Below, in pieces: positions 3,556 to 23,361 of a stretch of DNA of 23,709 nt. The translations under genes were made by a program, and so were the position numbers. Positions within the stretch are counted from its first letter, which is position 1. Each line of letters begins with the position of its first letter. This DNA is from a virus (lineage: Duplodnaviria; Heunggongvirae; Uroviricota; Caudoviricetes): the IMG/VR virus record IMGVR_UViG_2778261500_000001; one strand, written 5' to 3'. The notes below the pieces were generated by a model. It had not been told where the DNA came from, did no database searches, and worked only from the letters and a program-made list of their open reading frames with translations.

Positions 3556-4002
3556 TCACCCCGCCAGCCATTGCAGAATCATGTCGCGGGTCATTGCCTC
3601 AACATCATCATTTACACCCAGCAGGCGGCGCTCTGCGTAACGGACCTCCGGTCCTTTGCGACTGACGCGATCTCGCAGGCCGTAATGGTGAACGCGGGCA
3701 ATGCGCTGCACCTTGCCTTCAAACTGCACGCTGGCAGAGTCGGTGCTGGCGGCAGTTTTCAGGTATTTTGTGGTGCGCAGCTTTGCAAACATCTGACGTT
3801 TGATACGGCCTTTTTTACTGCGTGCTGTTACCCTGCGCGGTTCATAACTGCTGCCATCAGGATTGCGCTGCATCCTGATATTCTGCTGCTGTGTCCGGCG
3901 CAGTTCCTGCGCCAGCTGGCGCATCATGCGGCTTCTGGCGGCTGGTTCCAGATTCGCCAGCAAGGCACTCAACCAGTCGTCCACCTTCTGCAATTCAGCC
4001 AC
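3556..4002 (-). CDS. S: Tail completion protein S
   Basis: 148 aa ORF at the P2 S position (R-S-V order); basic central region. Confidence 0.75.
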   Translation of the reverse strand: MAELQKVDDWLSALLANLEPAARSRMMRQLAQELRRTQQQNIRMQRNPDGSSYEPRRVTARSKKGRIKRQMFAKLRTTKYLKTAASTDSASVQFEGKVQRIARVHHYGLRDRVSRKGPEVRYAERRLLGVNDDVEAMTRDMILQWLAG

Positions 4003-4447
4003 GTTTCACCGTCCACATTTCTTCAGGTTCATCAGGTTCCGCTATAGCTTCAACGCTCGACACACTGCCGTCAGTGCTGACCAGCACACGTTCCGTCAGT
4101 TGCAGGTTCAGGCTGATATCACAGACATCGTTGCGCAGAATATCCACCTCAAAGGTGAATAGCTTTTCCCGTAACGCCGGGTTATTGATGGCATCGGGCT
4201 GGTTATCACGCAGCCACAGCAAAACCGGGGCCATCAGCAGATTCTGGTCGCCGCTGAAATCCTCAATCACCACGTTCAGGGTGTAGCGGTACTCCCATGA
4301 CATGGAGCTGGCCCCCGTGGCAACCAGCGAACCGTTATCCACAAACAGATGCAGTTTGTCCGGGTTATTGCGGACATAAGGCACCGCTTTATTGAGGGCG
4401 TGGCGCAGGGATTGTGGTTTGTTCACTGTTTCGCTCCTGACACGCAA
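3995..4447 (-). CDS. R: Tail completion protein R
   Basis: 150 aa; motif FVDNGS near the N-terminus matches my memory of P2 gpR; follows the lysis genes. Confidence 0.75.
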   Translation of the reverse strand: MRVRSETVNKPQSLRHALNKAVPYVRNNPDKLHLFVDNGSLVATGASSMSWEYRYTLNVVIEDFSGDQNLLMAPVLLWLRDNQPDAINNPALREKLFTFEVDILRNDVCDISLNLQLTERVLVSTDGSVSSVEAIAEPDEPEEMWTVKRG

Positions 4448-4679
4448 TAATCATGTCCACTTTGTCTGCACAGACCGCCCAGGCGGCCTCCGTTTCATCC
4501 AGCAACGCATTCAGATCACCGTTAGTGCGCGGTGCTGCCTGCTCCAGCCGACACGGCGTCACTCGCGGACAACCACTGACGGTAAGCTGCACCTCCGGTG
4601 AGTGCCTGACGTTCCCGCAGCCGGATAATGTCAGCAGGCAAAGGAGTATCAGCCCAGTGGCGTAAATCCTCGTTCTCAC
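4389..4679 (-). CDS. lysC: LysC-like outer-membrane spanin (Rz1-type lipoprotein)
   Basis: 96 aa with lipobox LTLSGC after a hydrophobic leader; reading frame overlaps the 3' end of lysB and the 5' end of R, the typical overlapped spanin arrangement. Exact start uncertain. Confidence 0.6.
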   Translation of the reverse strand: MRTRIYATGLILLCLLTLSGCGNVRHSPEVQLTVSGCPRVTPCRLEQAAPRTNGDLNALLDETEAAWAVCADKVDMIIACQERNSEQTTIPAPRPQ

Positions 4680-6800: not shown

Positions 6801-7451
6801 TCAGCGGCTGTCATTGCGCAGTCTGCGCTCCAGCTGCTGTTTGTCTTTTTTCACGCCACAGCGGGGATCGAGCTGCAACGCATGGTTGAGATGGTTAAGG
6901 GCGGAAGCCGGATTGCTTTCACTCAGGACAGCGCCAATCGCTTTATGCAGACGCGCCCGTGACTGGTCCGGCATATCCAGACCGTCTGTCAGCTCCAGCG
7001 TCTGCAGCAACAGATCGGCATCAAAGCCGGTGGCGGCAAGCATTGCGCTCTGCGCCGCGTCTGCCATTTCCTCTGCCAGCACGGTCTGCACATTGCGATT
7101 ACCCAGCGGCATCACCCAGCCATGACGCAGGGCGTGACGCCCGATCTCCAGCGCCCCGGCATAATCTCCGGCATCAATGCGCCACAGCATCACGTACATC
7201 AGCACGTCATCCTGTTGAGCGCCTCCGGCAGCAAGGACACCCTCCGCCCAGGCGGCGTACTTCGGCAGCAGCTCCACCTTGATTTCCGCTTTTTTGACCG
7301 TGGACTGAACGCCCTTGAGACGGCGGCGGTCTTCCGCCAGTTGCAGCAGCATCAGGTCATAGCCCGACGCGTGGCGAACGCTGCCGCCCTCGCGGGCGGC
7401 CTGTTCAGCCTGAACGCGCAGGCGATGCTGCCGTGCGGGACTCAGGCTCAT
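6801..7451 (-). CDS. M: Terminase small/endonuclease subunit M
   Basis: 216 aa; region DDVLMYVMLWRIDAGDYAGALEIGRHALRHG resembles P2 gpM as recalled; immediately follows N. Confidence 0.8.
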   Translation of the reverse strand: MSLSPARQHRLRVQAEQAAREGGSVRHASGYDLMLLQLAEDRRRLKGVQSTVKKAEIKVELLPKYAAWAEGVLAAGGAQQDDVLMYVMLWRIDAGDYAGALEIGRHALRHGWVMPLGNRNVQTVLAEEMADAAQSAMLAATGFDADLLLQTLELTDGLDMPDQSRARLHKAIGAVLSESNPASALNHLNHALQLDPRCGVKKDKQQLERRLRNDSR

Positions 7452-7454
7452 GAA

Positions 7455-8513
7455 TTACGCTCCGGTTTCTGCTGCTGCGGCGCTGAAGTCGCCAATCTGG
7501 ATGTTTTCCACCAGTGCGGCGCAGCGGTAGTCCTCAACCACATAGGCTTCGTTAACGGATTCAAAGTTTTCAATCCGGTCACGTTTCGGGTTGTCGATAA
7601 CTGAGCGGCGGCGGGTGTCTTCCTGCCAGTAGATGGACAGGTTATCCAGACGGGTGATCAGCAGTGCATTCGGCGGGAAGAACGGCGCACGCACGGCCTG
7701 CAGGCCACCCATGCGTTTCTGACTGATGATCATATCGGCAGCCAGTTTTTCACTGTTTTCCTGCTCTTTGTTGACCAGCGGGAAATACTTGTCAGACAGC
7801 AGTTCACGACCGCAAATCACCACCAGATCGTCATCGTCCTGGTAGACCACATCGATAAGCTCATTGACGGCATCCATCACCACGGCGTCCAGGTTGGCAT
7901 ATTCGCCACCTTTCCCGACTTTCACCGCACCCGGTGTGGTTTCACCGCCCGTGGTGGTGCTGCCCATGACGTGATCCGGTGCATCTTCACGGATTTTCTG
8001 CAGCCAGCCTTTGTTCACATCCTGCAGCAGCGGGTTTTCGCTACGGCTGGAGGTTTTCGCACGCTTCACGCCGTTAAAGCCGATCATGATGCGGTCCAGA
8101 GCCTGACGTTTCACGATGGCGTCACGGATGCGCACCTGGAAATCCTGAAACTTCGCCCACAGGTCCAGCTTCGCGTAGGTCAGCACCGTGTCAAAGTTGG
8201 TCTGCTCGCATTTATATTCCACATCGACCATCAGCGTCGGATCGACAGGTTCACGCTCTTTCGCGGTGGTGTCAGTGGTTCCGGCAATGGTGCTGCCAAC
8301 TCCCAGCCCCAGCAGCTGACCGGACTGCTCAGTCACTGGCGTGACGTTAATCAGCGTCAGGAAAGCGGCGGACTGCTGGATCTGGTCTTCCAGCGTCTGC
8401 TGCACAGACGGCTCCACGGTGAACTTGCTGGACAGTTCTTCAACTGCCACACCGTTCAGACGCGCCAGCTGCTGCAGGTAAGCGTTAAAAGCAAAGCGGG
8501 TATTCTTCTTCAT
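7455..8513 (-). CDS. N: Major capsid protein N
   Basis: 352 aa; long colinear similarity to P2 gpN from memory (FNAYL..., KFTVEPSVQQTL, KGGEYANLDAVVMDA, NKEQENSEKLAAD, VVEDY). Confidence 0.95.
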   Translation of the reverse strand: MKKNTRFAFNAYLQQLARLNGVAVEELSSKFTVEPSVQQTLEDQIQQSAAFLTLINVTPVTEQSGQLLGLGVGSTIAGTTDTTAKEREPVDPTLMVDVEYKCEQTNFDTVLTYAKLDLWAKFQDFQVRIRDAIVKRQALDRIMIGFNGVKRAKTSSRSENPLLQDVNKGWLQKIREDAPDHVMGSTTTGGETTPGAVKVGKGGEYANLDAVVMDAVNELIDVVYQDDDDLVVICGRELLSDKYFPLVNKEQENSEKLAADMIISQKRMGGLQAVRAPFFPPNALLITRLDNLSIYWQEDTRRRSVIDNPKRDRIENFESVNEAYVVEDYRCAALVENIQIGDFSAAAAETGA

Positions 8514-9505: not shown

Positions 9506-11272
9506 ATGAACACCACACTGACACCCGCAGATCTCGATCCCCGTCGGCAGGCCATGCTGCTGTACTTTCAGGGATACCGCGTAGCCCGCATTGCTGAAAT
9601 GCTGGGCGAGAAAGTTGCAACCGTTCACAGCTGGAAAAAACGCGACAAGTGGGGTGACTATGGGCCGCTGGATCAGATGCAGCTCACCACCGCCGCACGC
9701 TACTGCCAGCTCATTATGAAGGAGCACAAAGAAGGGAAAGATTTCAAAGAAATTGACCTGCTGGCGCGCCAGTCGGAGCGCCACGCGCGGATCGGCAAGT
9801 TTAACAATGGCGGCAACGAAGCCGACTTAAACCCTAACGTCGCCAACCGCAACAAAGGCCCGCGCCGTCAGCCGGAAAAGAATGTTTTCACCGATGAACA
9901 GATAGAGAAACTGGAAGAAATCTTCCATTCCTCCATGTTCAACTACCAGCGCCACTGGTGGGAAGCCGGAAAAACCAACCGCATCCGCAACCTGCTGAAG
10001 TCACGCCAGATCGGCGCGACCTTTTACTTTGCCCGTGAAGCCCTGATTGACGCCCTGCTTACCGGACGTAACCAGATTTTCCTTTCTGCCAGTAAGGCAC
10101 AGGCTCACGTCTTTAAGCAGTACATCATCGACTTCGCCAAAGAAGTCGAGGTGGAGCTGAAAGGCGATCCGATGGTGCTTCCTAACGGGGCCACGCTTTA
10201 CTTCCTCGGCACCAATGCCCGCACGGCGCAGAGTTACCACGGCAACCTGTATCTGGATGAATATTTCTGGATACCGAAATTCCAGGAGTTGCGCAAAGTG
10301 GCTTCCGGTATGGCTATTCACAAGAAATGGCGACAAACCTATTTTTCCACGCCATCCAGCCTGACCCACAGTGCTTATCCGTTCTGGTCCGGTGCGCTGT
10401 TCAACCGTGGACGCAACAAAGCTGACAAGGTGGACATCGACCTGTCCCACAGCAATCTGGCCCCCGGCCTACTGTGCGCAGACGGGCAATACCGCCAGAT
10501 AGTCACCGTGGAAGATGCGGTGCGCGGCGGCTGTAACCTGTTCGACCTCGACCAGCTGCGCATGGAGTACAGCCCGGACGAATACCAGAACCTGCTGATG
10601 TGCGAGTTCGTGGACGATCTCGCGTCCGTGTTCCCGCTCAGCGAACTGCAGGCGTGCATGGTGGACAGCTGGGAAGTCTGGACCGACTTTCATGCACTGG
10701 CCCTGCGCCCGTTTGGCTGGCGCGAAGTGTGGATCGGTTATGACCCGGCAAAAGGTACGCAGAACGGCGACAGTGCCGGATGCGTGGTGGTGGCTCCGCC
10801 AGCCGTGCCGGGTGGTAAGTTCCGCATTCTTGAGCGTCACCAGTGGCGCGGGATGGACTTCCGCGCCCAGGCTGACGCCATCAAAAAACTGACCGAACAG
10901 TATAACGTGACCTATATCGGTATCGACTCGACCGGCGTCGGTCACGGGGTTTACGAGAACGTGAAAGCGTTTTTTCCTGCCGTCAGGGAGTTTGTCTATA
11001 ACCCCAACGTTAAAAACGCCCTGGTACTCAAGGCCTACGACATTATCAGCCACCGCCGTCTGGAGTTTGACGCCGGGCACACCGACATTGCGCAGTCATT
11101 TATGGCAATCCGTCGCGCTACCACTGCCAGTGGCAACCGCCCGACCTATGAAGCCAGCCGCAGCGAAGAAGCCAGCCATGCCGATCTGGCCTGGGCAACA
11201 ATGCACGCACTGTTTAACGAACCGCTGCAGGGCGAGTCCGCCAATACCAGCAATATTGTGGAGATTTTTTGA
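9506..11272 (+). CDS. P: Terminase large (ATPase) subunit P
   Basis: 588 aa, P2 gpP size and position; divergent from O and followed by Q with a 4-nt overlap. Confidence 0.9.
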   Translation: MNTTLTPADLDPRRQAMLLYFQGYRVARIAEMLGEKVATVHSWKKRDKWGDYGPLDQMQLTTAARYCQLIMKEHKEGKDFKEIDLLARQSERHARIGKFNNGGNEADLNPNVANRNKGPRRQPEKNVFTDEQIEKLEEIFHSSMFNYQRHWWEAGKTNRIRNLLKSRQIGATFYFAREALIDALLTGRNQIFLSASKAQAHVFKQYIIDFAKEVEVELKGDPMVLPNGATLYFLGTNARTAQSYHGNLYLDEYFWIPKFQELRKVASGMAIHKKWRQTYFSTPSSLTHSAYPFWSGALFNRGRNKADKVDIDLSHSNLAPGLLCADGQYRQIVTVEDAVRGGCNLFDLDQLRMEYSPDEYQNLLMCEFVDDLASVFPLSELQACMVDSWEVWTDFHALALRPFGWREVWIGYDPAKGTQNGDSAGCVVVAPPAVPGGKFRILERHQWRGMDFRAQADAIKKLTEQYNVTYIGIDSTGVGHGVYENVKAFFPAVREFVYNPNVKNALVLKAYDIISHRRLEFDAGHTDIAQSFMAIRRATTASGNRPTYEASRSEEASHADLAWATMHALFNEPLQGESANTSNIVEIF

Positions 11273-12309
11273 TGGGAAAGAGTAAGAAGAACCGCGCTGC
11301 GTCGACGAAACAGATCCAGCATAAAAGCCAGACTTCAGCCGAAGCATTCAGCTTCGGTGATCCCGTTCCTGTTCTGGACCGCCGCGAACTGCTGGACTAT
11401 GTGGAATGCGTACAGATGGATCGTTGGTACGAGCCGCCTGTGAGTTTCGACGGACTGGCGCGAACCTTCCGCGCCGCCGTGCATCACAGCTCACCGATTG
11501 CAGTGAAGTGCAACATTCTGACCAGCACCTACATCCCTCACCCGCTGCTCAGCCAGCAGGCTTTTTCGCGTTTTGTACAGGACTATCTGGTTTTTGGTAA
11601 CGCCTACCTGGAGAAACGCACGAACCGCTTCGGTGAAGTTATCGCCCTTGAGCCTGCACTGGCAAAATACACCCGACGCGGGTTAGACCTTGATACCTAC
11701 TGGTTTGTGCAATACGGCATGACTACGCAGCCGTATCAGTTCACGAAAGGCAACATTTTTCATCTGATGGAACCGGACATCAACCAGGAGATCTACGGCC
11801 TGCCTGGTTATCTTTCTGCCATTCCGTCAGCTCTGCTCAACGAGTCCGCCACGCTGTTCCGCCGCAAGTATTACATTAACGGCAGTCATGCAGGCTTCAT
11901 CATGTACATGACCGATGCAGCGCAGAACCAGGAGGATGTGAACAACCTCCGCAATGCGATGAAAAGCGCCAAAGGTCCTGGTAACTTCCGTAACCTGTTT
12001 ATGTACTCGCCTAACGGTAAAAAGGACGGGCTTCAGATTATCCCGTTGTCAGAAGTGGCGGCGAAGGATGAGTTCCTGAATATCAAGAACGTGAGCCGGG
12101 ACGACATGATGGCGGCGCATCGTGTGCCGCCACAAATGATGGGGATAATGCCTAATAATGTCGGGGGGTTTGGGGATGTGGAGAAGGCCAGCCGTGTATT
12201 CGTCCGAAATGAGCTAATGCCACTACAAAAGCGATTACAGGAGATGAATGATTGGCTTGGCAAGGAGGCGATACAGTTTAATACCTACTCGCTAGATATA
12301 GTCCCATAA
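11269..12309 (+). CDS. Q: Portal protein Q
   Basis: 346 aa ORF downstream of P, P2 gpQ size and position. Confidence 0.9.
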   Translation: MMGKSKKNRAASTKQIQHKSQTSAEAFSFGDPVPVLDRRELLDYVECVQMDRWYEPPVSFDGLARTFRAAVHHSSPIAVKCNILTSTYIPHPLLSQQAFSRFVQDYLVFGNAYLEKRTNRFGEVIALEPALAKYTRRGLDLDTYWFVQYGMTTQPYQFTKGNIFHLMEPDINQEIYGLPGYLSAIPSALLNESATLFRRKYYINGSHAGFIMYMTDAAQNQEDVNNLRNAMKSAKGPGNFRNLFMYSPNGKKDGLQIIPLSEVAAKDEFLNIKNVSRDDMMAAHRVPPQMMGIMPNNVGGFGDVEKASRVFVRNELMPLQKRLQEMNDWLGKEAIQFNTYSLDIVP

Positions 12310-12343: not shown

Positions 12344-13084
12344 TTACTCAATAGGTTCAAACTCATCCTGAGGAATCAGCGTCGATTGACAGGCTTGGCT
12401 TAGTACTCCTGATAATTTACATAATAACCGATAGTTATGAGGAGCATCATCGCTAATCTTTTCGACCGTTAAAGTGATTGATTTTGGATCATCCAATAAC
12501 ATCTTCTTGATATCATTACTTAAATACCTAGGGCAGTAACCAACGATTTCAGCTGGTTTATCTGCACGAACGACAACAGCATCCCCATCGTATTCATTTT
12601 GAAGATCCAAGCAAAGACGCAAAATTTGCCCCGGTTTCAATTCAGATACACGAGCATTAGCTAAGCTATTTAAGTAACCAAGTCCATGTAAGAAGAAAAA
12701 ATGCTCAAAGTTACCATCAGAATCAACATCAATTTTTTTGAAAATCTGCAGCTGATCAGTGCTTCGTAAGCCTCCCGAGCGAGCAAGAATATCGATAGGA
12801 TTTACCTTATCTTCTTCAAATCCAAGCCATTTAATGAAACTCGGATACTCTGGACGTCTCGGTGATAAAAGGCGATTTTTAAAAAGAGGAAACAATTCTT
12901 CCGAAACATAAGTTTCACGAACATCACTCATGCCGCTAAACTTTGTAAATTTAGTAGATTTAAGAGCACCTTTGGTATACCTGAAAACATACCCCGATTT
13001 GCGCTCTTGCAAGTTACCAACAACATGCCAGTCTCTGGTATCTGGTGCCTGCCATGCGACGTAAACGGAGTTTGTATTAGTCAT
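12344..13084 (-). CDS. Partner protein with HipA-N-terminal-like domain fused to a HIRAN-like domain
   Basis: 246 aa. N-terminal part (VYVAWQ...VVGNL...YVFRY; LFPLFKNRLLSPRRPE; IDILARSGGLRS) resembles the HipA N-terminal subdomain as I recall it. C-terminal part (LKPGQILRLCLDLQNEYDGDAVVVRADKPAEIVGYCPRYLSNDI) fits the HIRAN pattern. Start overlaps the stop of the upstream kinase gene. AT-rich. Confidence 0.6.
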   Translation of the reverse strand: MTNTNSVYVAWQAPDTRDWHVVGNLQERKSGYVFRYTKGALKSTKFTKFSGMSDVRETYVSEELFPLFKNRLLSPRRPEYPSFIKWLGFEEDKVNPIDILARSGGLRSTDQLQIFKKIDVDSDGNFEHFFFLHGLGYLNSLANARVSELKPGQILRLCLDLQNEYDGDAVVVRADKPAEIVGYCPRYLSNDIKKMLLDDPKSITLTVEKISDDAPHNYRLLCKLSGVLSQACQSTLIPQDEFEPIE

Positions 13085-13995
13085 TCTAGTAACCTTCTGC
13101 GATTTTCCATTACCATTAACGTTGCAAATCTACGTGCACTGTCGGATATACACGATGAAGGCACTTGGTTAAACACATCTGTAATGGAATCTTCTGTTAA
13201 AACGCTCAACTTACCTAACCAATGGTCGCGAGCGGCAACTCTCCCTTCAACTGCATGTTGAAATGCTTCAACGGTCAGCAAGGGCTTTTTATCAGTTTTT
13301 GCTTTGAATAGCTCAGAGCGAGCTTTTCTTACAAAACATGGGATTTGTCGATTTTTATCTTTAGTATTAAGCCGTTCGTTACGCTCATCATCTAACATCT
13401 CCCTTCCTAAACTAGCGGCATGATCGTATGTTGGACACAAAAACTGCTCACCAGTTTCATTGTTAAGCATGATCGCCCAATTTTCATGATGGCGATCTTG
13501 ATTACTCACAAGTGCATCGAGCATCAAAAATCCACAAAATACATCTGCTGCATTTAGCCCGGTTAGATCATATACACTCGGAGGAGGCTTGATAGATTCC
13601 CTATCTAAACAACCCAATACCCTTGTGACAGTGTGTTCTCTGACCCTTACCGGCTTTTCCCCGGCTTGTAAAGGCCCTGGATAATCGAATGTCGAACTGT
13701 GAAGCACTTCATTTCCCATTACCATCCGGAAACCAGATGGAATGATATTCTGAGTCACCACACCGAATCGACCATTGTATCGCGCCAAATCATAGCTAGC
13801 ATGTGGAATGTTAAGCAAATGACATAACTCAGCAGCACACTTTTCAGACCAATGCTCGCCAGTACCTGGCCTAGAGTACTTAAACAACTGCAAATTTACA
13901 GTGTCATCGGAGAAATAGAACCAAAACTTCTCTTTGGTTCCTAACTGTTCAAGATCGTTAGCTACGGGGCTAAGCTCTACCAATTGGTATGGCAT
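13081..13995 (-). CDS. HipA-like Ser/Thr protein kinase, core kinase domain only
   Basis: 304 aa. Motifs seen: FLMLDALVSNQDRHHENWAIM (compare HipA catalytic loop with Asp) and LCPTYDHAASLG (compare HipA PAYD Mg-binding Asp), plus a glycine-lysine motif LGTKEKF near the N-terminus. Putative catalytic Asp167 and Asp191 by my count. No HipA N-terminal domain in this ORF. Confidence 0.75.
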   Translation of the reverse strand: MPYQLVELSPVANDLEQLGTKEKFWFYFSDDTVNLQLFKYSRPGTGEHWSEKCAAELCHLLNIPHASYDLARYNGRFGVVTQNIIPSGFRMVMGNEVLHSSTFDYPGPLQAGEKPVRVREHTVTRVLGCLDRESIKPPPSVYDLTGLNAADVFCGFLMLDALVSNQDRHHENWAIMLNNETGEQFLCPTYDHAASLGREMLDDERNERLNTKDKNRQIPCFVRKARSELFKAKTDKKPLLTVEAFQHAVEGRVAARDHWLGKLSVLTEDSITDVFNQVPSSCISDSARRFATLMVMENRRRLLE

Positions 13996-14147
13996 CTGAC
14001 ATCCCTGTTTAGCGGATTATGAATAAGTTAGGTTCCATTTTATCCAAACATTGTCAAATACTCTAAGATTTATTAGATGATAGAGCGATACTGTATGCAT
14101 GTCCAGCAATCAAATCAATATATAACTCTTATATGACTTAGCGCGCG

Positions 14148-14166
14148 CTCGTATCCCCGCCACGCC
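14148..14166 (-). other. Candidate cos cohesive-end sequence
   Basis: Minus-strand reading GGCGTGGCGGGGATACGAG resembles the P2/186 19-nt cohesive ends as I remember them (GGCGAGGCGGGGAAAGCAC / GGCGTGGCGGGGAAAGCAT). Orientation and position relative to Q fit; exact ends unverified. Confidence 0.45.
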
Positions 14167-14210
14167 TGCCCGCTTTATGTAGTGGTTTTCATGCAGGTGC
14201 ATGATCTACG

Positions 14211-14235
14211 CAAAAGCCCGCCAGTTCTGGCGGGC
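14211..14235 (-). terminator. Hairpin gcccgccag-ttc-tggcgggc followed by a T-run on the minus strand
   Basis: Perfect 9-bp GC-rich inverted repeat seen directly; on the minus strand it is followed by TTTTG. Could be a terminator or part of the cos-flanking structure. Confidence 0.4.
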
Positions 14236-14508
14236 CTTAGCGAAAACGATCCTCAAACGATCATGCAATCTCATGCAGCATAGACATGCACAGACGAGTA
14301 AAGCGAATCGGACCTTACGCAAGGTGAACTCCTCAGCGGGCATAATCAGTATGTCGGAAGATCTCTAAAAATAAATAATTCGGTTAACAGGTATGCTTAC
14401 AAAAGCATATATTTGATTAAAAATCATGTAAGGGGGAGGATCTCAAACTGAATCGCCACGGGTTTTACAAATTTCGATAGTCTCTCTAACGTTTCGGCTG
14501 AGGTCAAA

Positions 14509-14934
14509 ATGAAAAGCTTTTACGTATTAATTTTAATTCTGGTTGCAAGCTTTGTTAGCGTCCCAGTTCAGGCGGTAACAGCTAAAAACTATGAGAAAGG
14601 AACTAAAGCTCAACAGAAATCAATATCTTACCTTTCATGTGCATTCTATGGCAGTAGCACACAATTAGATCCTAGCTACACGGAGCAAGTACCTACAGCC
14701 GATATCAAGATATTACAGAAAGCAGCTTACCACGCTTACAACGATGCGCTCTCATACTTTGGCTATGAGGAACCAGATCACGAACAACGCATAATTGATT
14801 ATGCTGAATTTGTGGCGTCGCAAGAAGCTGTGTTATGGGATAAGCCGGGAATGAATGGAAAGCAGGTAACACTAATTGCTCGTTCTCTCTACAATGAGAG
14901 TAACTGTAACTTGTTACTGGACTCAATTAAGTAG
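14509..14934 (+). CDS. Small secreted protein of unknown function (accessory/moron gene)
   Basis: 141 aa with a classic Sec signal peptide (MKSFYVLILILVASFVSVPVQA, AxA-type cleavage site); GAGG Shine-Dalgarno 8 nt upstream; AT-rich; only plus-strand gene in this island. Confidence 0.5.
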   Translation: MKSFYVLILILVASFVSVPVQAVTAKNYEKGTKAQQKSISYLSCAFYGSSTQLDPSYTEQVPTADIKILQKAAYHAYNDALSYFGYEEPDHEQRIIDYAEFVASQEAVLWDKPGMNGKQVTLIARSLYNESNCNLLLDSIK

Positions 14935-15093
14935 GAAAAAGATGGTATTTTGCCCGTAGTTTCAACCTTAATCTCCGAACCTGTCGCAGAACGGGCGTTC
15001 ACTCATCAAATAAACGCCACACCTAACGCCTCACTGTACTCGTTGTTCAACCTTGCTGACGCCAGAACCAAGTTCAGACGCCAGCAACTTTTC

Positions 15094-15327
15094 TTAATGC
15101 AGCCAGCTGTCGTCTTCCCACACCTTCTGCATAATCTTCATCACTTGTTTTCTTTCTTCGTCCAGTTGCAGTCCGGTCAGTTCCACACCGTTAGAGCTAC
15201 CTTTGCGGATGCGAATTACCATTTTGGGATACAGGGGGCGCAGATTGCGGTAAAGCTCGGATTCAAGGGCGTCCAGGGTAGACTGGCTAATCTTCTGCTC
15301 TTTATCGATCATTATTTCAATGCGCAT
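15094..15327 (-). CDS. DinI-family protein (SOS-associated, Tum/DinI-like)
   Basis: ORF 15094..15399; from internal start MRIEIMIDKEQ... the product is about 78 aa and resembles E. coli DinI end-to-end as recalled, including the C-terminal acidic W motif (WEDDSW). Confidence 0.7.
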   Translation of the reverse strand: MRIEIMIDKEQKISQSTLDALESELYRNLRPLYPKMVIRIRKGSSNGVELTGLQLDEERKQVMKIMQKVWEDDSWLH

Positions 15328-15337
15328 AAAGGTCACC

Positions 15338-15526
15338 TCAGCTGATGACATCCATTGAGCGGTTGTATTCGTGGGTTCTGATTTTTGCCATGAGTTCATC
15401 AGTCAATTCAGAAACCCACTGCAGAGCCAGCCCCTTCTCTTCATCACTACACTCACTAGCCGCTACAAGCTTAAGAAAAAAATCAATGCGCTGGAGCTTC
15501 AAAGACTCCAAAAAATAGTCCTGCAT
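15338..15526 (-). CDS. Small hypothetical protein immediately downstream of a LexA box (possible Tum-like antirepressor component)
   Basis: 62 aa ORF with strong SD (GGAGG) and a LexA box about 45 bp upstream; functional call is positional only. Confidence 0.35.
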   Translation of the reverse strand: MQDYFLESLKLQRIDFFLKLVAASECSDEEKGLALQWVSELTDELMAKIRTHEYNRSMDVIS

Positions 15527-15568
15527 CTTTCCTCCTATGACACCAAAGCAATACTGTATATATAACCA

Positions 15569-15584
15569 CTGTTTATATTTACAG
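15569..15584 (-). promoter_or_regulatory. LexA box (CTGT-N8-ACAG) overlapping an AT-rich promoter region
   Basis: cACTGTTTATATTTACAGta seen directly; perfect CTGT/ACAG half-sites with an AT-rich 8-bp spacer; TATA-rich -10-like sequences adjacent; upstream of the 62-aa/DinI-like genes. Confidence 0.7.
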
Positions 15585-15678
15585 TATATAATAATCTTAC
15601 TGATGTAAAACGTTTTTTTACGTTCATCAGCCTGAAATGCCTGGTATTATTAAGAGCACGAATTGTTAACCCGCGTAA

Positions 15679-18051
15679 TTAATACAGGTTCCGCCACTTA
15701 TCATCTTCCTGCAAACGCTGGTTCCGATAGAAGATACGCAGGCCTGCTCCTGACGGAATACTGCCGCCGCGAAGGAGTAAATCGACCTCTTTCTCGCTGC
15801 CATCAAATCCTCTGGACTTCAGTTCATAGACGAGCTGCTGTCGCTGATGGTCTGTAATTCGCTGTTTGTAGTCTTTACGCCGTTTCGGTTTCACCAGGCG
15901 TAACCTTGCAGCCAGTTCCCGGCGCTCTTTTTTGCTCATACTGTGCAGGTATTCGTGCAACTCCTTGTCATCCATGCGGGTAATGTCCGTTCTGGTATCC
16001 CCATCAGCTGATTTGTCTTTCCCTTGTTGGTTCAAATTTTCAGCAAGGGGACAGTTATTGCCACGAGTCCAAGGGGCGCAAGCGCCCTGGTCGGCTGCCG
16101 CCTCCTGAACATCAACGGCCTTACGAACCATTTTCCACTTCACGGCATGAGTGCAGATCTTGCCCTCTGCAATAGGTGACCAGATGCCATAAATACGAAT
16201 GCCGTGATCGCCATAGGCGGTCGGCTCTTCGTTGATTTCATAAGCGGTTCTGATGAGGTGATATTTGCGGGGAACCAGTACGCCGCCCTGCTTCATGATG
16301 TAGGTGGCAAAACAACCAGCATCAGCAGCAGCCAGGATGGCATCAAGGCGCGGGTTATCCAGTACCGGCGCACCTGCTTTTTTGTCCCCCTGTTGCCTTG
16401 CCGCCTGACCAGCCAGCAATCGCAGTTCACGGTAAGCCTGACGCCCCGGAATGCCAAAGAAGCGGAATTGCTGAACACGATGCAGAGACGCCCAGGCATT
16501 AACGTATTCAGCATTATCACGCAGGGATTTCCCCGTTTCCTTGCTGATCTCGCCAGCCAGACCACGCCCGTCAATGTTCTTACTGATGTATTTCGCGATG
16601 TAGCTTGTTGGCGTACCTTTGCGCGGGTTAATCAACTCAGACTTAAAGCGCGGCCCAGTGTTATTGCCCAGTTCCTCGCGGTCTTCACGGATGGCAAACT
16701 TACGCAGTAATGCAGTGATGGCGCGGCGGTCTTTTTTGCGCATAAAACACAACAGGTGCCAGTGAACTGTACCGTCATGATGCGGCTCAGCCACCCGCAC
16801 GCCATACCACCGCAATCCGGCTTTGTGCATCGCCTTACGAAATGCAGCAAACATGCCGACCAGATAATCACTGCTTTGTCTTACCGTCGCATTTGTCCAA
16901 GTTGGGTTGGGCCTGCCATTATTTAGCGTGGAATGGAAACGTGACGGACAGGTGATGGTGTAGAAAACGGCGCAGTCACCGCGCATTTCCGCGATAAGCT
17001 CCAGGCCTTTAACACAGGCCATCATCTCATTGCGGCGATGCGCAGGGTTGCTGCTGCTGGCGTTTACCACATCCTCCATGTCCAGCGTGTCGCCGTCTTC
17101 GTTCACCAGTTCATGAGAACGAAAAAACTCCAGCGACTTACGGCGCTGCTCACGTTTATGCATCACGGCTTCATAGCTGACATAGGGAGATGCTTTTTTG
17201 CTGACCAGGCAGACAGCACGCAACTGCTCTTCCCGCCATTCGCAACGCATCTTCCATAATTTCCGGTACCACCAGTCAGCGCACAACATACGCGCCAGCG
17301 AACCCGGAATGAGTTCATAGGGCACGGGTTTACGGCGGTTTCTTTTCCGGCGGAGTTGCTCAAACGCAGGCGGGATGACATCCAGACGCAGGGTTTCCGC
17401 TGCCACCTTTTCCCATGTCTTGCGGATTTCTTCTGGCTTAACGTCATCGGTGACATACAAATCGCCACAAGCTGCATCAAGGCACATGCTCATATGCGCA
17501 GCTACCAGGGTGGACAGGCGTTTCACCTGATCCTGACTCATTTCAGGCAGGATCAGCAGGCCGTCCAGCCCTTCATGGCTTGCCATAAAGCGAAAAGAAG
17601 TGGATAGCTGACAGTCGCGTACATGCTCCAGCCGTTCCAGACATGGCTTAATCGTCTCACGCAAATAGCGGGAATAAGCCTTTGGCCTGCCCAGGCTGCT
17701 GAAGTATTCAATACGTTGCATCAGTGGCTTGCTGATATGGGAAGGCTGGGCATTAACGTCCGCCAGAATGACCATATCTGGATTAAAACGCTGCTGCTCA
17801 TGCGCCAGCTTTGCCCGACTAATGAGCTTATCCTGCTCCATTTCGCGCTGGACAGGATCACGGGATTCATTAAAGAAATAACGCTCCCAGACCTGATCAC
17901 TCAGTGCCTCGCGGCGCAGCTGTTCCTGCTCGTTATCGGCAGCGTACAGAGCGATCAGGTTTGAAAGCGCAGAAACTGAAGATTGCTCTTCCGTCTCTAC
18001 GTAAGGATTGATTGCTTTTTTCTCAGCATTCCAGGAATAGCTGTAGTTCAT
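15679..18051 (-). CDS. A: Replication initiation protein A (rolling-circle endonuclease)
   Basis: ORF 15679..18102 (807 aa); probable start at MNYSYSW (18051), overlapping the upstream stop as TAATG. Contains a two-tyrosine motif [12 protein letters not shown] consistent with P2 gpA active-site tyrosines. Confidence 0.85.
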
Positions 18052-18881
18052 TACGCAATCTCCAGTTCGAGCTGTGAAGGCTGCAAACCATTCGACAGCC
18101 AATCAGAAACTGAAGGTGGGCGAACAGCTTCAATTGCACCTTTTAAAATTGCGCAACGGTTTTTCAGAATGACAGCTTTCAGCTCCTTTTCCGTCAGATT
18201 GCGCGAATACTCAGCCTCCTGAATAGCCCGCGTCAGCTCAGGATATTTGCTATTAAATTTGGGGACATTGCAGGCAAGATTTGTACTGTCGGCAGTCGCC
18301 AGTGGGTAATTTCCCAACACACGACCGTCAAGCATGCGCAAACCATGAACAGCTGTTTTGAAATTGTGTCGGCAATAAATTGCTTCAAAAGCGTCCTGCA
18401 TACGACGATGCCAGTGCGCAGTTCTGATAGCCGCATATTCACCAGACGATCCAAAGCAGACACGAGGCCATTCACGACATAGCTCGATAAGCCGATCGAT
18501 TGACTCGTGCAGATGCCAGACGGGAGTTGCCTTCCCGTAGAACATTTTCGGAACTTCGTTTATCAGGGCATCATTGTCACGTTCACCTCCGTCCACAACA
18601 TCAGGAATGACAAAAAAAGCGACCTTAGGATGGTGGTAATAGTTCAGGAGCCATTTATAAAAATCACTCCAGTTAATTTTTAGCCCACGCACCCATGCAG
18701 AAAATGCGCCGTTATCAATGCCGACGACCTGAGCGTGCTGAATGGACGCCGCAATCTGATCTGGTCGTACATAGGAGACGAAAGCGCCAGCTCCGCTCAC
18801 CGCAATACGATGAACGTCGCCAGCACTTCCCCAGACAGGCGTCCCATGGAAATGATGAATTCCGTGGTGCATTTCTTTCAC
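18051..18881 (-). CDS. Hypothetical protein, possibly TGT/DpdA-like TIM-barrel (uncertain)
   Basis: 276 aa; GTG start overlaps the Dam stop (GTGA), stop overlaps the A start. Motifs [32 protein letters not shown] are weakly reminiscent of tRNA-guanine transglycosylase-like enzymes; unverified. Confidence 0.45.
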
Positions 18882-22227: not shown

Positions 22228-23361
22228 ATGAATATTACTCGATTAAAACTGAAAAATTGGAAAAACTTCAGGAATATTGATGTTCCTCTTCATGACCGTG
22301 TTTACATCATAGGGCCAAATGCTGTAGGTAAATCAAACTTCCTTGATGTCTTTCGCTTTATGAGTGATATTTGTAGAGATGGTGGTGGTTTACAAAAAGC
22401 GGTCAATGATAGAGGTGGCATAACAAAACTCCGTTGTCTTCAAGCGAGAAATGATACCGAAGTAGGTATAACCATATATTTTGAGGAAGACGATAACGAG
22501 TGGATTTATGAACTTATTTTCAAGGCATCTGGCCGAGGGAAACAGTTAATTCACGTCACTAGTGAAAATGTATATAAAAATGGTGAGCATATATTGAGCC
22601 GCCCCAATGCTCATGATCATGCTGATGCTGTTCAGTTGACTCAAACACATCTTGAGCAAATTTTAGCAAATCAAAGTTTTAGAGTGATTTCAGATTTCTT
22701 CACATCTGTTACATACTTGCATATAGTTCCACAGTTGCTCAAATTCGCCAAAGAAATTGGGGTTAATAAAATAGATGATGACCCATTTGGACAAGGGTTT
22801 CTTGACCGATTAGCAAATACTCAAACACGAACCAGAGATGCCTGGCTAAAAAAAATACAAGCAGGGCTATCTATTGCTGTTCCGCAGTTTAAAGAGTTAC
22901 GCTTTGAAAGAGATGAATCAGGGCAACCACACTTAGAAGCAAGGTACGAGCACTGGAGGCCAAATGCTGGATGGCAAAAAGAAGAGCAGTTTTCAGATGG
23001 AACATTACGTTTAATCGGTTTGATGTGGTCACTTCTTGAGAAAAGACAGCTACTTTTAATGGAAGAACCTGAATTATCTTTGAACAGTGAAATTGTGAAA
23101 TTTATACCTGAAATCATTGAAAACACGCTTAAAGGTGCTCGAAATCAAAAGCAAATCATCATTAGCACTCACAGTCCATCGTTGCTAAGTAATAATATCG
23201 ATGGCAATAACATTATTCTATTTACAGCATCTGAAAACGGTACTACAGCGAGAACACCTACAGATGATGAATTGGATGCAATGAGAGTCGGTTTCTCTGC
23301 TGCTGAAATCATGTTGCCTCATACGACGCCTGCCAATATAAGTAAAATTGCAGAGATCTAG
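22228..23361 (+). CDS. ABC-type (AAA_21/OLD-like) ATPase, putative defence-system component
   Basis: 377 aa. Walker A GPNAVGKSN, signature-like FSDGTLR, Walker B-like LLLMEEPE, H-loop ISTHSP, all seen directly. ATG is 1 nt after the cI stop with an AAGAGG SD. Confidence 0.8.
   Translation: MNITRLKLKNWKNFRNIDVPLHDRVYIIGPNAVGKSNFLDVFRFMSDICRDGGGLQKAVNDRGGITKLRCLQARNDTEVGITIYFEEDDNEWIYELIFKASGRGKQLIHVTSENVYKNGEHILSRPNAHDHADAVQLTQTHLEQILANQSFRVISDFFTSVTYLHIVPQLLKFAKEIGVNKIDDDPFGQGFLDRLANTQTRTRDAWLKKIQAGLSIAVPQFKELRFERDESGQPHLEARYEHWRPNAGWQKEEQFSDGTLRLIGLMWSLLEKRQLLLMEEPELSLNSEIVKFIPEIIENTLKGARNQKQIIISTHSPSLLSNNIDGNNIILFTASENGTTARTPTDDELDAMRVGFSAAEIMLPHTTPANISKIAEI

Follow-up and report, generated by a model that had tools for sequence, protein, structure and literature searches.

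The classical morons of temperate phages, namely Bor and Lom of lambda, Cor of phi80 and N15, and Sim of P1, are autonomous genes of atypical composition that the prophage expresses and whose products act in the cell envelope. Spackle (Sp) of phage T4, a mostly helical protein, acts on superinfecting T-even phages by inhibiting their tail lysozyme, and the periplasmic protein Pim, encoded on pPCP1 of Y. pestis, inhibits a muramidase toxin. In phage 186, orf97 (homologue of Fels-2 STM2726; phrog_1353) carries the annotation 'expression from plasmid blocks 186 infection'. The general concept of the moron has been described (PMC3594210), and an anti-phage hotspot has been documented beside cos, in the gA-gQ region (PMC9122126, PMC9519451). 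Cytoplasmic defence systems have been the main focus when the P2/P4 hotspots were surveyed. Because functional screens often drop clones that alter the cell surface (PMC9519451), envelope-acting cargo has been under-studied.

We analysed a gene located beside cos in a 23,709-nt stretch of DNA (the window; IMG/VR virus record IMGVR_UViG_2778261500_000001), which is a 186/P2-like (Peduoviridae) prophage of E. coli. An earlier note, made from the sequence alone, had described this gene as a moron for a secreted protein and had suggested lysogenic conversion or superinfection exclusion as its role. The reading that we favour, with a probability of roughly 0.35, is that the product works on its own as a binder in the periplasm of the lysogen, where it stops an incoming phage or some other attack on the envelope.

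Cos and its flanking cargo slots

The plus strand of the window encodes terminase (9506–11272) and portal (11269–12309), which are followed on the minus strand by genes for a HIRAN protein (12344–13084) and a HipA-like kinase (13081–13995). A non-coding gap (13996–14508) separates the kinase gene from the gene under study. Beyond the latter lie, all on the minus strand, a DinI-like gene (15094–15399 as the listed ORF; the RefSeq CDS in strain E308 is 234 nt long, corresponding to about 15094–15327 here), an ORF for a 62-aa product (orf62, 15338–15526) and replication gene A (15679–18102), with Dam methylase, CII, Fil and CI further rightward.

Cos was located by alignment with the ends of phage 186. 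The annotated phage 186 genome starts with the cohesive end GGCGTGGCGGGGAAAGCAT and ends with ...ccataaagtgggca, and the minus strand of the window at cos reads ...acataaagcgggca/ggcgtggcggggatacgag. The junction ...ataaagcgggca/ggcgtggcgggga aligns with both annotated phage 186 ends, and therefore the 19-nt cohesive-end sequence is at 14148–14166 on the minus strand (GGCGTGGCGGGGATACGAG). The first 13 nt of this sequence are identical to the annotated phage 186 cos. Coordinates above cos thus represent the right end of virion DNA and those below cos the left (portal) end. The surrounding conserved cos/packaging block of the P2/186-like backbone (14133–14291) recurs at 92–96% identity in Fels-2 and numerous peduoviruses of Klebsiella and Escherichia. 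The gene under study starts 343 bp from the right cohesive end and reads inward, in agreement with its earlier placement beside cos. It is convergent with the orf62/DinI-like operon. Overlapping strong LexA-box matches upstream of that operon (15552–15586) parallel the LexA-controlled p95 SOS operon annotated in phage 186.

The cos block also aligns with 'empty-site' E. coli prophages. In these prophages, which make up many of those lacking the gene, the block directly abuts the DinI-like gene. Alignment with one such empty-site locus (L020) delimited a moron cassette of the plus strand as a 729-bp insert at 14293–15021. A Megablast search with a cos-to-orf62 query (14133–15526) found related backbone in about 1,285 of 5,426 complete E. 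coli genomes. The full segment was present in 101 of these ~1,285 genomes, with a gene identity of at least 99% in every one of the 101. Elsewhere the same slot holds an HNH endonuclease, a DUF4145 protein or a DUF6236 protein; another prophage has an acidic 111-aa protein (phrog_17127) there, and Fels-2 and phage 186 have a 243-aa two-TM protein.

On the portal side of cos, the cargo of the window matched PDC-M03A/B in PADLOC (E 1e-121 and 3e-93). It is the pair of 'HipA_C' and 'HIRAN' genes that Rousset et al. 2022 (PMC9122126) give as P2-hotspot system 20, with 150 occurrences. Comparison of 31 IMG/VR loci showed that the portal-side cargo varies, being PDC-M03, a KAP NTPase, AIPR, nSTAND1, a three-gene DUF4325 set or one of several unidentified inserts of differing length. 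Across the E. coli-type loci the gene under study kept an identity of 97% or more, and in IMG/VR locus L054 and the Klebsiella loci its identity was 90%. Cos is flanked by two cargo slots. A functional link between the gene and the PDC-M03 kinase-HIRAN pair was considered and rejected: cos lies between them and, because the portal-side cargo is exchanged freely while the gene stays nearly constant, the gene is not part of PDC-M03.

The gene and its exported product

The ORF at 14509–14934 on the plus strand consists of an ATG start, 141 codons in all and a stop codon, and specifies a 141-aa product. Its GC content is 0.40 (GC3 0.39). The surrounding stretch of about 12.0–16.0 kb has a GC content of 0.38–0.47, as against 0.52–0.64 in the structural genes and about 0.55 in the backbone, and this gene is the only credible one on its plus strand, as had been claimed for the AT-rich island. 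Another plus-strand ORF, at 14950–15345, is antisense to the DinI-like gene and has no RefSeq annotation. The gene was also said to possess its own ribosome-binding site, which we identified as a GAGG Shine-Dalgarno sequence at 14500–14503 (plus strand), 5 nt 5′ of the ATG; this element is kept in the Klebsiella and Hafnia copies.

An identical CDS is annotated in RefSeq as a hypothetical protein (WP_000834899.1), and the product matched the phrog_7437 profile over its full length (E 4.3e-99, residues 1–141 on positions 1–141). Comparison of the window copy with three homologues of 90%, 77% and 77% protein identity by the Nei-Gojobori method gave dN/dS values of 0.15–0.27 at a dS of 0.2–0.8, indicating that the homologues are under purifying selection. 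The RefSeq CDS, the phrog_7437 match and the purifying selection argue that 14509–14934 is more than a chance ORF, and at the level of sequence it is confirmed as a real gene. As to phrog_7437 itself, this is a family without an assigned function, domain or structure, and membership in it is silent on mechanism.

WP_000834899 is unmentioned in the main texts of the literature and was found only in a supplementary locus table. Table S5A of PMC9122126 lists it within anti-phage hotspot loci at least 32 times, and it is not among the systems examined in Table S5B.

The N-terminus was evaluated by the classical rules of hydropathy and residue preference at positions −3 and −1. Residues 1–22 (MKSFYVLILILVASFVSVPVQA; 14509–14574, plus strand) constitute a predicted signal peptide of the SPase I type, in which the positive n-region MK is followed by a 15-residue h-region (SFYVLILILVASFVS) and the c-region VPVQA, after which the sequence continues with VTAK. 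Kyte-Doolittle means across the h-region were 2.1–3.4 (window-averaged values up to 3.35), and the c-region contains a proline, with V at −3 and A at −1. Neither a lipobox nor an RR (twin-arginine) motif was found in the N-terminus. Cleavage is predicted after A22 (A22/V23), which would release a mature protein of 119 aa with a mass of 13.4 kDa and a pI of 5.1. The n/h/c pattern with small residues at −3 and −1 (A-x-A-like triplets) occurs in 16 of 17 aligned family members; the letters of the signal peptide vary among the 17 although its architecture is kept. In the remaining member (P0011) the signal is internal, behind a 40-residue N-terminal extension of the gene call. Thus, the earlier claim of a clear Sec signal peptide holds, as both the three-region organization and the −3/−1 rule agree with Sec/SPase I export, and the product is almost certainly exported to the periplasm by way of this predicted cleavable signal.

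The mature protein is encoded, together with the stop codon, by 14575–14934 (plus strand), and its 119 residues were modelled as a five-helix bundle. The AlphaFold2 model (m288adea5cc6b), built from a 22-sequence alignment, had a mean pLDDT of 95.2 and a pTM of 0.88. It replaced an earlier model that included the signal peptide (pLDDT 76) and whose PDB fold search was uninformative. In full-length numbering, the modelled helices span residues 25–53, 63–83, 91–110, 120–130 and 133–140. Residues Y41, C44, A73, A99, W110, N116, Y128, N132 and C133 are conserved in at least 90% of the members, and the end of the third helix with the ensuing loop (Q105-E-A-V-L-W110-D-x-P-x-x-N116) is conserved at 70% or more. 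The two invariant cysteines lie in helix 1 (C44) and at the start of helix 5 (C133), and we infer that they are placed to form a periplasmic disulfide.

Structure prediction and a fold search had both been suggested in the earlier note. Prediction yielded the confident five-helix model, but Foldseek with the mature model found nothing in the PDB at E ≤ 0.001 (best E 1.3, TM at most 0.40) and no significant match in BFVD (best E 0.3). Structures of periplasmic inhibitors, T4 Spackle among them, are in the PDB. Fold search copes poorly with small helical bundles, and the libraries searched were the PDB and BFVD; within that scope the model is compatible with a possible new fold.

Homologues and a truncated upstream partner

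An exhaustive HMMER search of 1.84 billion representative proteins yielded 13 clusters of homologues, to which a profile search of a 5.8-billion protein set added only a plasmid branch. Named members of the family are from E. coli, Klebsiella aerogenes, Hafnia alvei, Enterobacter, Citrobacter and Salmonella, and 37 IMG/VR contigs carry a family gene. No relative was found in 185,579 species-representative genomes, nor by tblastn in 50,697 deposited phage genomes. As far as sequence similarity reaches, these searches place the family exclusively in Enterobacterales, on temperate phages and phage-like plasmids; it is rare, phage-only and without a recognisable relative of known function. The earlier note had named an absence of homologues from other genomes as evidence that would refute it; they were instead found in other phages and in phage-like plasmids. 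All members keep the signal peptide, the two cysteines and the Q-E-A-V-L-W-D-x-P-x-x-N motif. Two secreted proteins of 157 and 165 aa, which share a signal peptide, a helix-1 Cys and an N-C-x-L-L motif at the C-terminus, are possible distant paralogues (hmmsearch E 1.4e-4 in a tiny database; hhalign probability only 16%).

Apart from the cos-DinI slot in 186-like prophages, the family gene occurs in several contexts. In a Hafnia P2-like prophage it lies between tail genes S and V, with a gene for a 215-aa membrane protein upstream and PDC-S11 downstream. Another copy lies at the very end of a prophage whose tail genes are of the siphovirus type, where it follows the tail spike and adjoins the chromosomal trp genes. 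In a K. aerogenes prophage that has an SU10-type portal, and likewise in another prophage, it is immediately inside the integrase end; in a lambdoid phage it belongs to the early-left region, flanked by recombination genes and methylases. Non-mobilizable IncFIB plasmids of 105–115 kb with phage genes carry it as a lone plus-strand gene among minus-strand genes. These phage-like plasmids, one of which is also recorded as a 113,250-bp viral contig, are probably SSU5-type phage-plasmids. Finally, it is present on contigs with ParA/ParG or a resolvase. All of these positions are accessory and represent at least six unrelated backbones, often with candidate defence genes adjacent. An all-against-all comparison of neighbours found no invariant companion gene.

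Several homologues lie within early operons rather than as isolated units, an observation that speaks against exclusion and makes a role in lytic growth possible. The product could then serve its own phage from the periplasm, by setting the timing of lysis, by sensing superinfection as the T4 RI antiholin does, or by protecting the envelope until assembly is done. Although the homologue is co-directional with early genes in several phages, we consider such a function very unlikely. The gene is dispensable, as its presence in only 101 of the ~1,285 backbone-positive genomes attests, and it is never part of a lysis cassette; in the Hafnia phage, holin and endolysin are encoded at another place. 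Furthermore, the window copy faces against every lytic operon, and the fold search gave no significant PDB match.

The distribution of the family also bears on whether the gene is a lysogenic-conversion factor for host fitness or virulence, such as a periplasmic stress chaperone or binder, or a factor for interaction with the host animal. Its carriers span ExPEC, APEC, STEC and commensal isolates of many hosts, and the copy that follows a tail spike is at the prophage end, a typical place of lambdoid conversion genes. However, no pathotype enrichment was apparent among the strains listed, no likeness of the product to known periplasmic chaperones or virulence factors was found, and the absence of the family from the species-representative genomes fits a phage-specific role better than a general host benefit. 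Conversion of this kind is thus an unlikely explanation.

In the Hafnia and K. aerogenes prophages, the family gene directly follows a gene for a protein of 215–219 aa that has two N-terminal TM helices with a basic loop between them. The two upstream proteins are 29% identical (E 3e-18), from which it follows that the pair was kept through deep divergence; the K. aerogenes homologue of our protein is itself 34% identical to the window protein. The window sequence at 14402–14941 is 79% identical to Hafnia locus L009 (7899–8433) over 541 nt. The start of this homology, 107 bp upstream of the start codon, falls within the final 82 nt of the partner gene, which is intact in Hafnia and encodes 215 aa. 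In the window only a pseudogenised 3′ remnant of the two-TM membrane-protein gene is left (14402–14486, plus strand), comprising the last ~28 codons with two in-frame stops. The homology with Hafnia begins inside the partner gene and the remnant contains stops; the cassette in 186-like phages therefore derives from an arrangement of two genes, the upstream one having been cut internally.

The partner family comprises 11 clusters, and in many Enterobacter contigs the partner is present without any member of our family. In Enterobacter chromosomal islands it lies beside HEPN_LA2681 and, in some, also SIR2_2 and DUF4225 genes. An obligate two-gene module, or a toxin-immunity pair with the two-TM protein, was not supported, as the partner is missing in most contexts and occurs alone elsewhere. 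Homology of the partner to the similarly built two-TM protein Orf97 of phage 186 was also considered, and comparison of the two found none.

A related explanation is that the protein works only together with the two-TM membrane protein, as it might in the Hafnia and K. aerogenes phages, and that the window copy is a decaying relic. Retention of the pair in two unrelated phages despite its divergence agrees with this explanation, as does the dead partner fragment in the window. On the other hand, copies without a partner are under purifying selection (dN/dS 0.19 for the window copy against that of Klebsiella locus L011, neither of which has the upstream partner), most contexts of the family have no partner and the partner family has solitary members too. 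We therefore give the relic explanation only a slim chance.

A candidate sigma-70 promoter at 14384–14413 on the plus strand (TTAACA, 18-nt spacing, TATATT; 10 of 12 consensus matches, with consensus hits not above those in shuffled sequences) straddles the junction between new sequence and the partner-gene remnant. A palindrome, TATGCTT-ACAA-AAGCATA, is located within it (14392–14409). No convincing intrinsic terminator was found downstream of the gene. As a moron, the gene has the features of a present/absent insert of 729 bp, a divergent GC content (0.40) and presence in unrelated backbones; of the equipment of an autonomous unit, the promoter match did not exceed shuffles and the terminator was not found. 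On the first three features the moron reading of the earlier note is right: the gene encodes a small secreted protein from a putative transcription unit of its own, oriented opposite to its neighbours, beside cos in an AT-rich accessory region. Lysogenic conversion or superinfection exclusion, as the note suggested, is a possible role. As judged from these comparisons, the results show a functional, horizontally mobile single-gene accessory cassette (moron) of the 186-like prophage.

Proposed periplasmic function and comparison with known systems

Profile, PADLOC, fold and hhalign searches linked the protein to no exclusion, immunity or virulence protein that has been characterised, either by homology or by fold. 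None of the 17 aligned members had a meaningful Pfam match at E ≤ 10, in a library that includes immunity families; NCBIfam contained no match to the protein, the PDB sequence/profile search was empty at E ≤ 10, and PADLOC-DB v2 returned zero families at E ≤ 0.01 for the protein, while its neighbours matched PDC-M03A/B.

These results weigh on another possibility, which is that the product is an orphan periplasmic immunity protein or inhibitor directed against an effector (a T6SS amidase or muramidase, colicin M, a pesticin-type bacteriocin or a lysozyme) and protects the host from competitors rather than from phages. Many periplasmic immunity proteins are small, soluble and helical with a cysteine pair, and the protein under study is likewise small, soluble, periplasmic and helical, with a conserved cysteine pair. 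Moreover, the position of the gene behind the truncated 3′ end of another gene is a layout typical of orphan immunity modules, and the distant plasmid homologues are about 3 kb from a 'lysozyme inhibitor LprI family' gene. However, the muramidase and lysozyme inhibitors LprI/DUF1311, Pim, Ivy and PliC/MliC gave no match by Pfam, PDB profile or Foldseek. When hhalign was used, an LprI-family protein aligned only over the signal peptide, as did Pim, with a probability of 0.4%. T6SS and bacteriocin periplasmic immunity proteins gave no Pfam or PDB match, and no effector gene, nor any homologue near T6SS or bacteriocin genes, was found in the contexts examined. The former upstream partner is implausible as a cognate toxin and is alone in many Enterobacter contigs. 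Taking both sides into account, we judge immunity against competitors to be improbable.

Our favoured reading, a periplasmic binder that guards the lysogen, would operate as follows. The protein would be expressed in the lysogen from its own candidate promoter, exported, cleaved at A22/V23 and folded in the periplasm into a compact five-helix bundle, in which a C44-C133 disulfide would staple the 13-kDa mature protein. Since the protein has no catalytic signature, a soluble periplasmic binder is the most likely type of activity. Binding might involve a conserved surface to which the end of helix 3, the loop W-D-x-P-x-x-N and, beside the disulfide, the Y128/N132 turn contribute. The lysogen would be protected at the level of the envelope: a superinfecting phage would be blocked at a step in the periplasm, for example as it penetrates the cell wall or ejects its DNA.

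Of the evidence, only the genomic context inclines towards defence or exclusion: the gene is in the cos hotspot, defence genes lie beside homologues (PDC-M03, PDC-S11), and the slot is that of orf97 in phage 186. Guilt by association is a weak argument here, as the gene is not tied to any one neighbour. We tentatively extend the proposal to the family, with somewhat more doubt than belief: it may be an uncharacterised family, possibly with a new fold, of soluble periplasmic entry blockers or envelope guardians that is shuttled as a single-gene cassette among at least six temperate-phage backbones of Enterobacterales.

That the gene is an uncharacterised secreted phage moron will not surprise a specialist. 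If its product blocks phage entry or an envelope toxin, it would add a new protein family to the few factors of exclusion or immunity that are soluble and periplasmic. The defence hotspot near cos in P2/186-like phages would then gain a second slot, to the right-end side of cos, with cargo that acts beyond the cytoplasm, and both sides of cos would be shown to be cargo slots. If there is no such phenotype, the gene would be one more orphan phage accessory gene. It makes a good test case, with a well-bounded 729-bp cassette, a confident model, a mutable conserved surface loop and cysteine pair, and natural isogenic empty-site prophages.

Among the known systems, the classical morons Bor, Lom, Cor and Sim are lipoproteins, outer-membrane barrels or larger proteins, and none of them matched the protein in Pfam, PHROG or the PDB. 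Pim is similar in size (131-aa annotated CDS), but it adjoins its toxin gene, whereas our gene has no toxin neighbour. Orf97 of phage 186, like our protein, is encoded in the slot between the tum/DinI-like gene and the right cos end. It differs in having an unrelated sequence of 243 aa with two N-terminal TM helices and no cleaved signal peptide, and in being on the strand of the SOS operon, transcribed from p95, whereas our gene is convergent with that operon. T4 Spackle resembles the protein in being small, phage-encoded and equipped with a signal peptide, and is annotated 'spackle periplasmic'. It comes from a virulent phage, however, and shares neither sequence similarity, as hhalign aligned only MKxF of the signal peptide, nor a significant PDB fold match. 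Spackle and P1 Sim, to neither of which our protein is related, work by blocking a periplasmic step of entry, and the likeness to Spackle is that of a possible mode of action.

Candidate defence genes beside cos and behind the CI repressor gene

The left end of the virion DNA carries, between cos and the portal gene, two minus-strand genes (window 12344-13995), one for a 304-aa HipA-like kinase and one for a 246-aa HIRAN protein. The pair matched the PADLOC candidate system PDC-M03A/B with E-values of 1e-121 and 3e-93 and is the same pair as P2-hotspot system 20, the HipA_C and HIRAN combination with 150 occurrences (PMC9122126). A sequence match placed a minus-strand promoter-like site (TGGACA, 17 nt, TATCAT; 14077-14105) upstream of the kinase gene, overlapped by the LexA-box-like sequence CTGTATGCATGTCCAG (14091-14106), which differs from CTGT-N8-ACAG by one mismatch. 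The PDC-M03 defence pair might be subject to SOS regulation; one-mismatch LexA-box matches were no more frequent than chance across the whole window.

A third accessory or defence slot of this prophage is at 22228-23361 (plus strand), immediately after the CI repressor gene, where a gene with a GC content of 0.34-0.40 encodes a 377-aa AAA_21/AAA_15 ATPase that matches PADLOC HEC-01A (E 5e-154). The partner gene of this HEC-01A-like ATPase, if there is one, may lie beyond the end of the window. The same post-CI position is occupied by genes for KAP NTPase or SNIPE/T5orf172 proteins in related prophages (L011-L013).

Neighbours and unusual relatives of the secreted-protein family

Proteins of 215-219 aa with an N-terminal two-TM hairpin are encoded at 7333-7980 of the Hafnia P2-like prophage locus L009, 7267-7926 of the Klebsiella aerogenes prophage locus L005 and 4001-4660 of loci L065-L070. 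In L009 and L005, which are unrelated phages, the two-TM gene is upstream of the secreted-protein gene. In chromosomal islands of Enterobacter, the two-TM protein is encoded without any member of the secreted-protein family; its gene there adjoins HEPN_LA2681 and, in part of these islands, SIR2_2 and DUF4225 genes. This family is small (11 clusters) and had no match in Pfam, PHROG or PADLOC.

In L005 and locus L024, the family member is followed one or two genes later by a gene for another secreted protein, of 157 aa (L005, 8740-9213) or 165 aa (L024, 6420-6917). Like the family, both proteins have a signal peptide and an internal L-W, with a Cys in helix 1 and, at the C-terminus, the motif N-C-x-L-L. 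Statistically, the resemblance was weak, with an E of 1.4e-4 in a local hmmsearch and an hhalign probability of 16%; the two proteins may be distant paralogues.

Directly downstream of the Hafnia homologue, a gene at 8624-9640 of L009 matches PDC-S11, a candidate defence protein in PADLOC, with an E-value of 8e-110, and the entire three-gene insert of this prophage is located between tail genes S and V. On a 39-kb Logan contig we found a chimeric protein of 200 aa (P0024), in which residues 1 to ~54 derive from the family's plasmid branch, beginning inside the signal peptide, and are fused to a HEPN pEK499_p136 domain (Pfam E 3e-41). The chimera probably arose at a junction on a phage-like plasmid, produced either by a deletion or by the assembly.

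Candidate regulatory sites, and cargo between the tum/DinI-like gene and cos

In the 141-aa gene's candidate promoter, the -35 and -10 elements flank TATGCTT-ACAA-AAGCATA (14392-14409), a palindrome whose 7-bp arms match perfectly and which could serve as an operator or form a hairpin. The Klebsiella copy retains the palindrome with 6-bp arms; the Hafnia copy lacks it, and the corresponding DNA there is coding.

In phage 186 and Fels-2, the slot from the tum/DinI-like gene to the right cos end is filled by a gene for a 243-aa protein of phrog_1353 with two N-terminal TM helices (186 orf97, L076 3105-3836; Fels-2 STM2726, L019 3700-4431). Because the 186 record states that plasmid expression of orf97 blocks 186 infection, this slot is able to carry an exclusion-type gene.

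The orf62/DinI-like operon is preceded by overlapping strong LexA boxes (15552-15586), of which CTGTTTATATTTACAG at 15569-15584 is perfect, and transcription starting at this cluster enters the 141-aa gene antisense. These boxes and the operon are the window's counterpart of the annotated LexA-controlled p95 SOS (tum) operon of phage 186.
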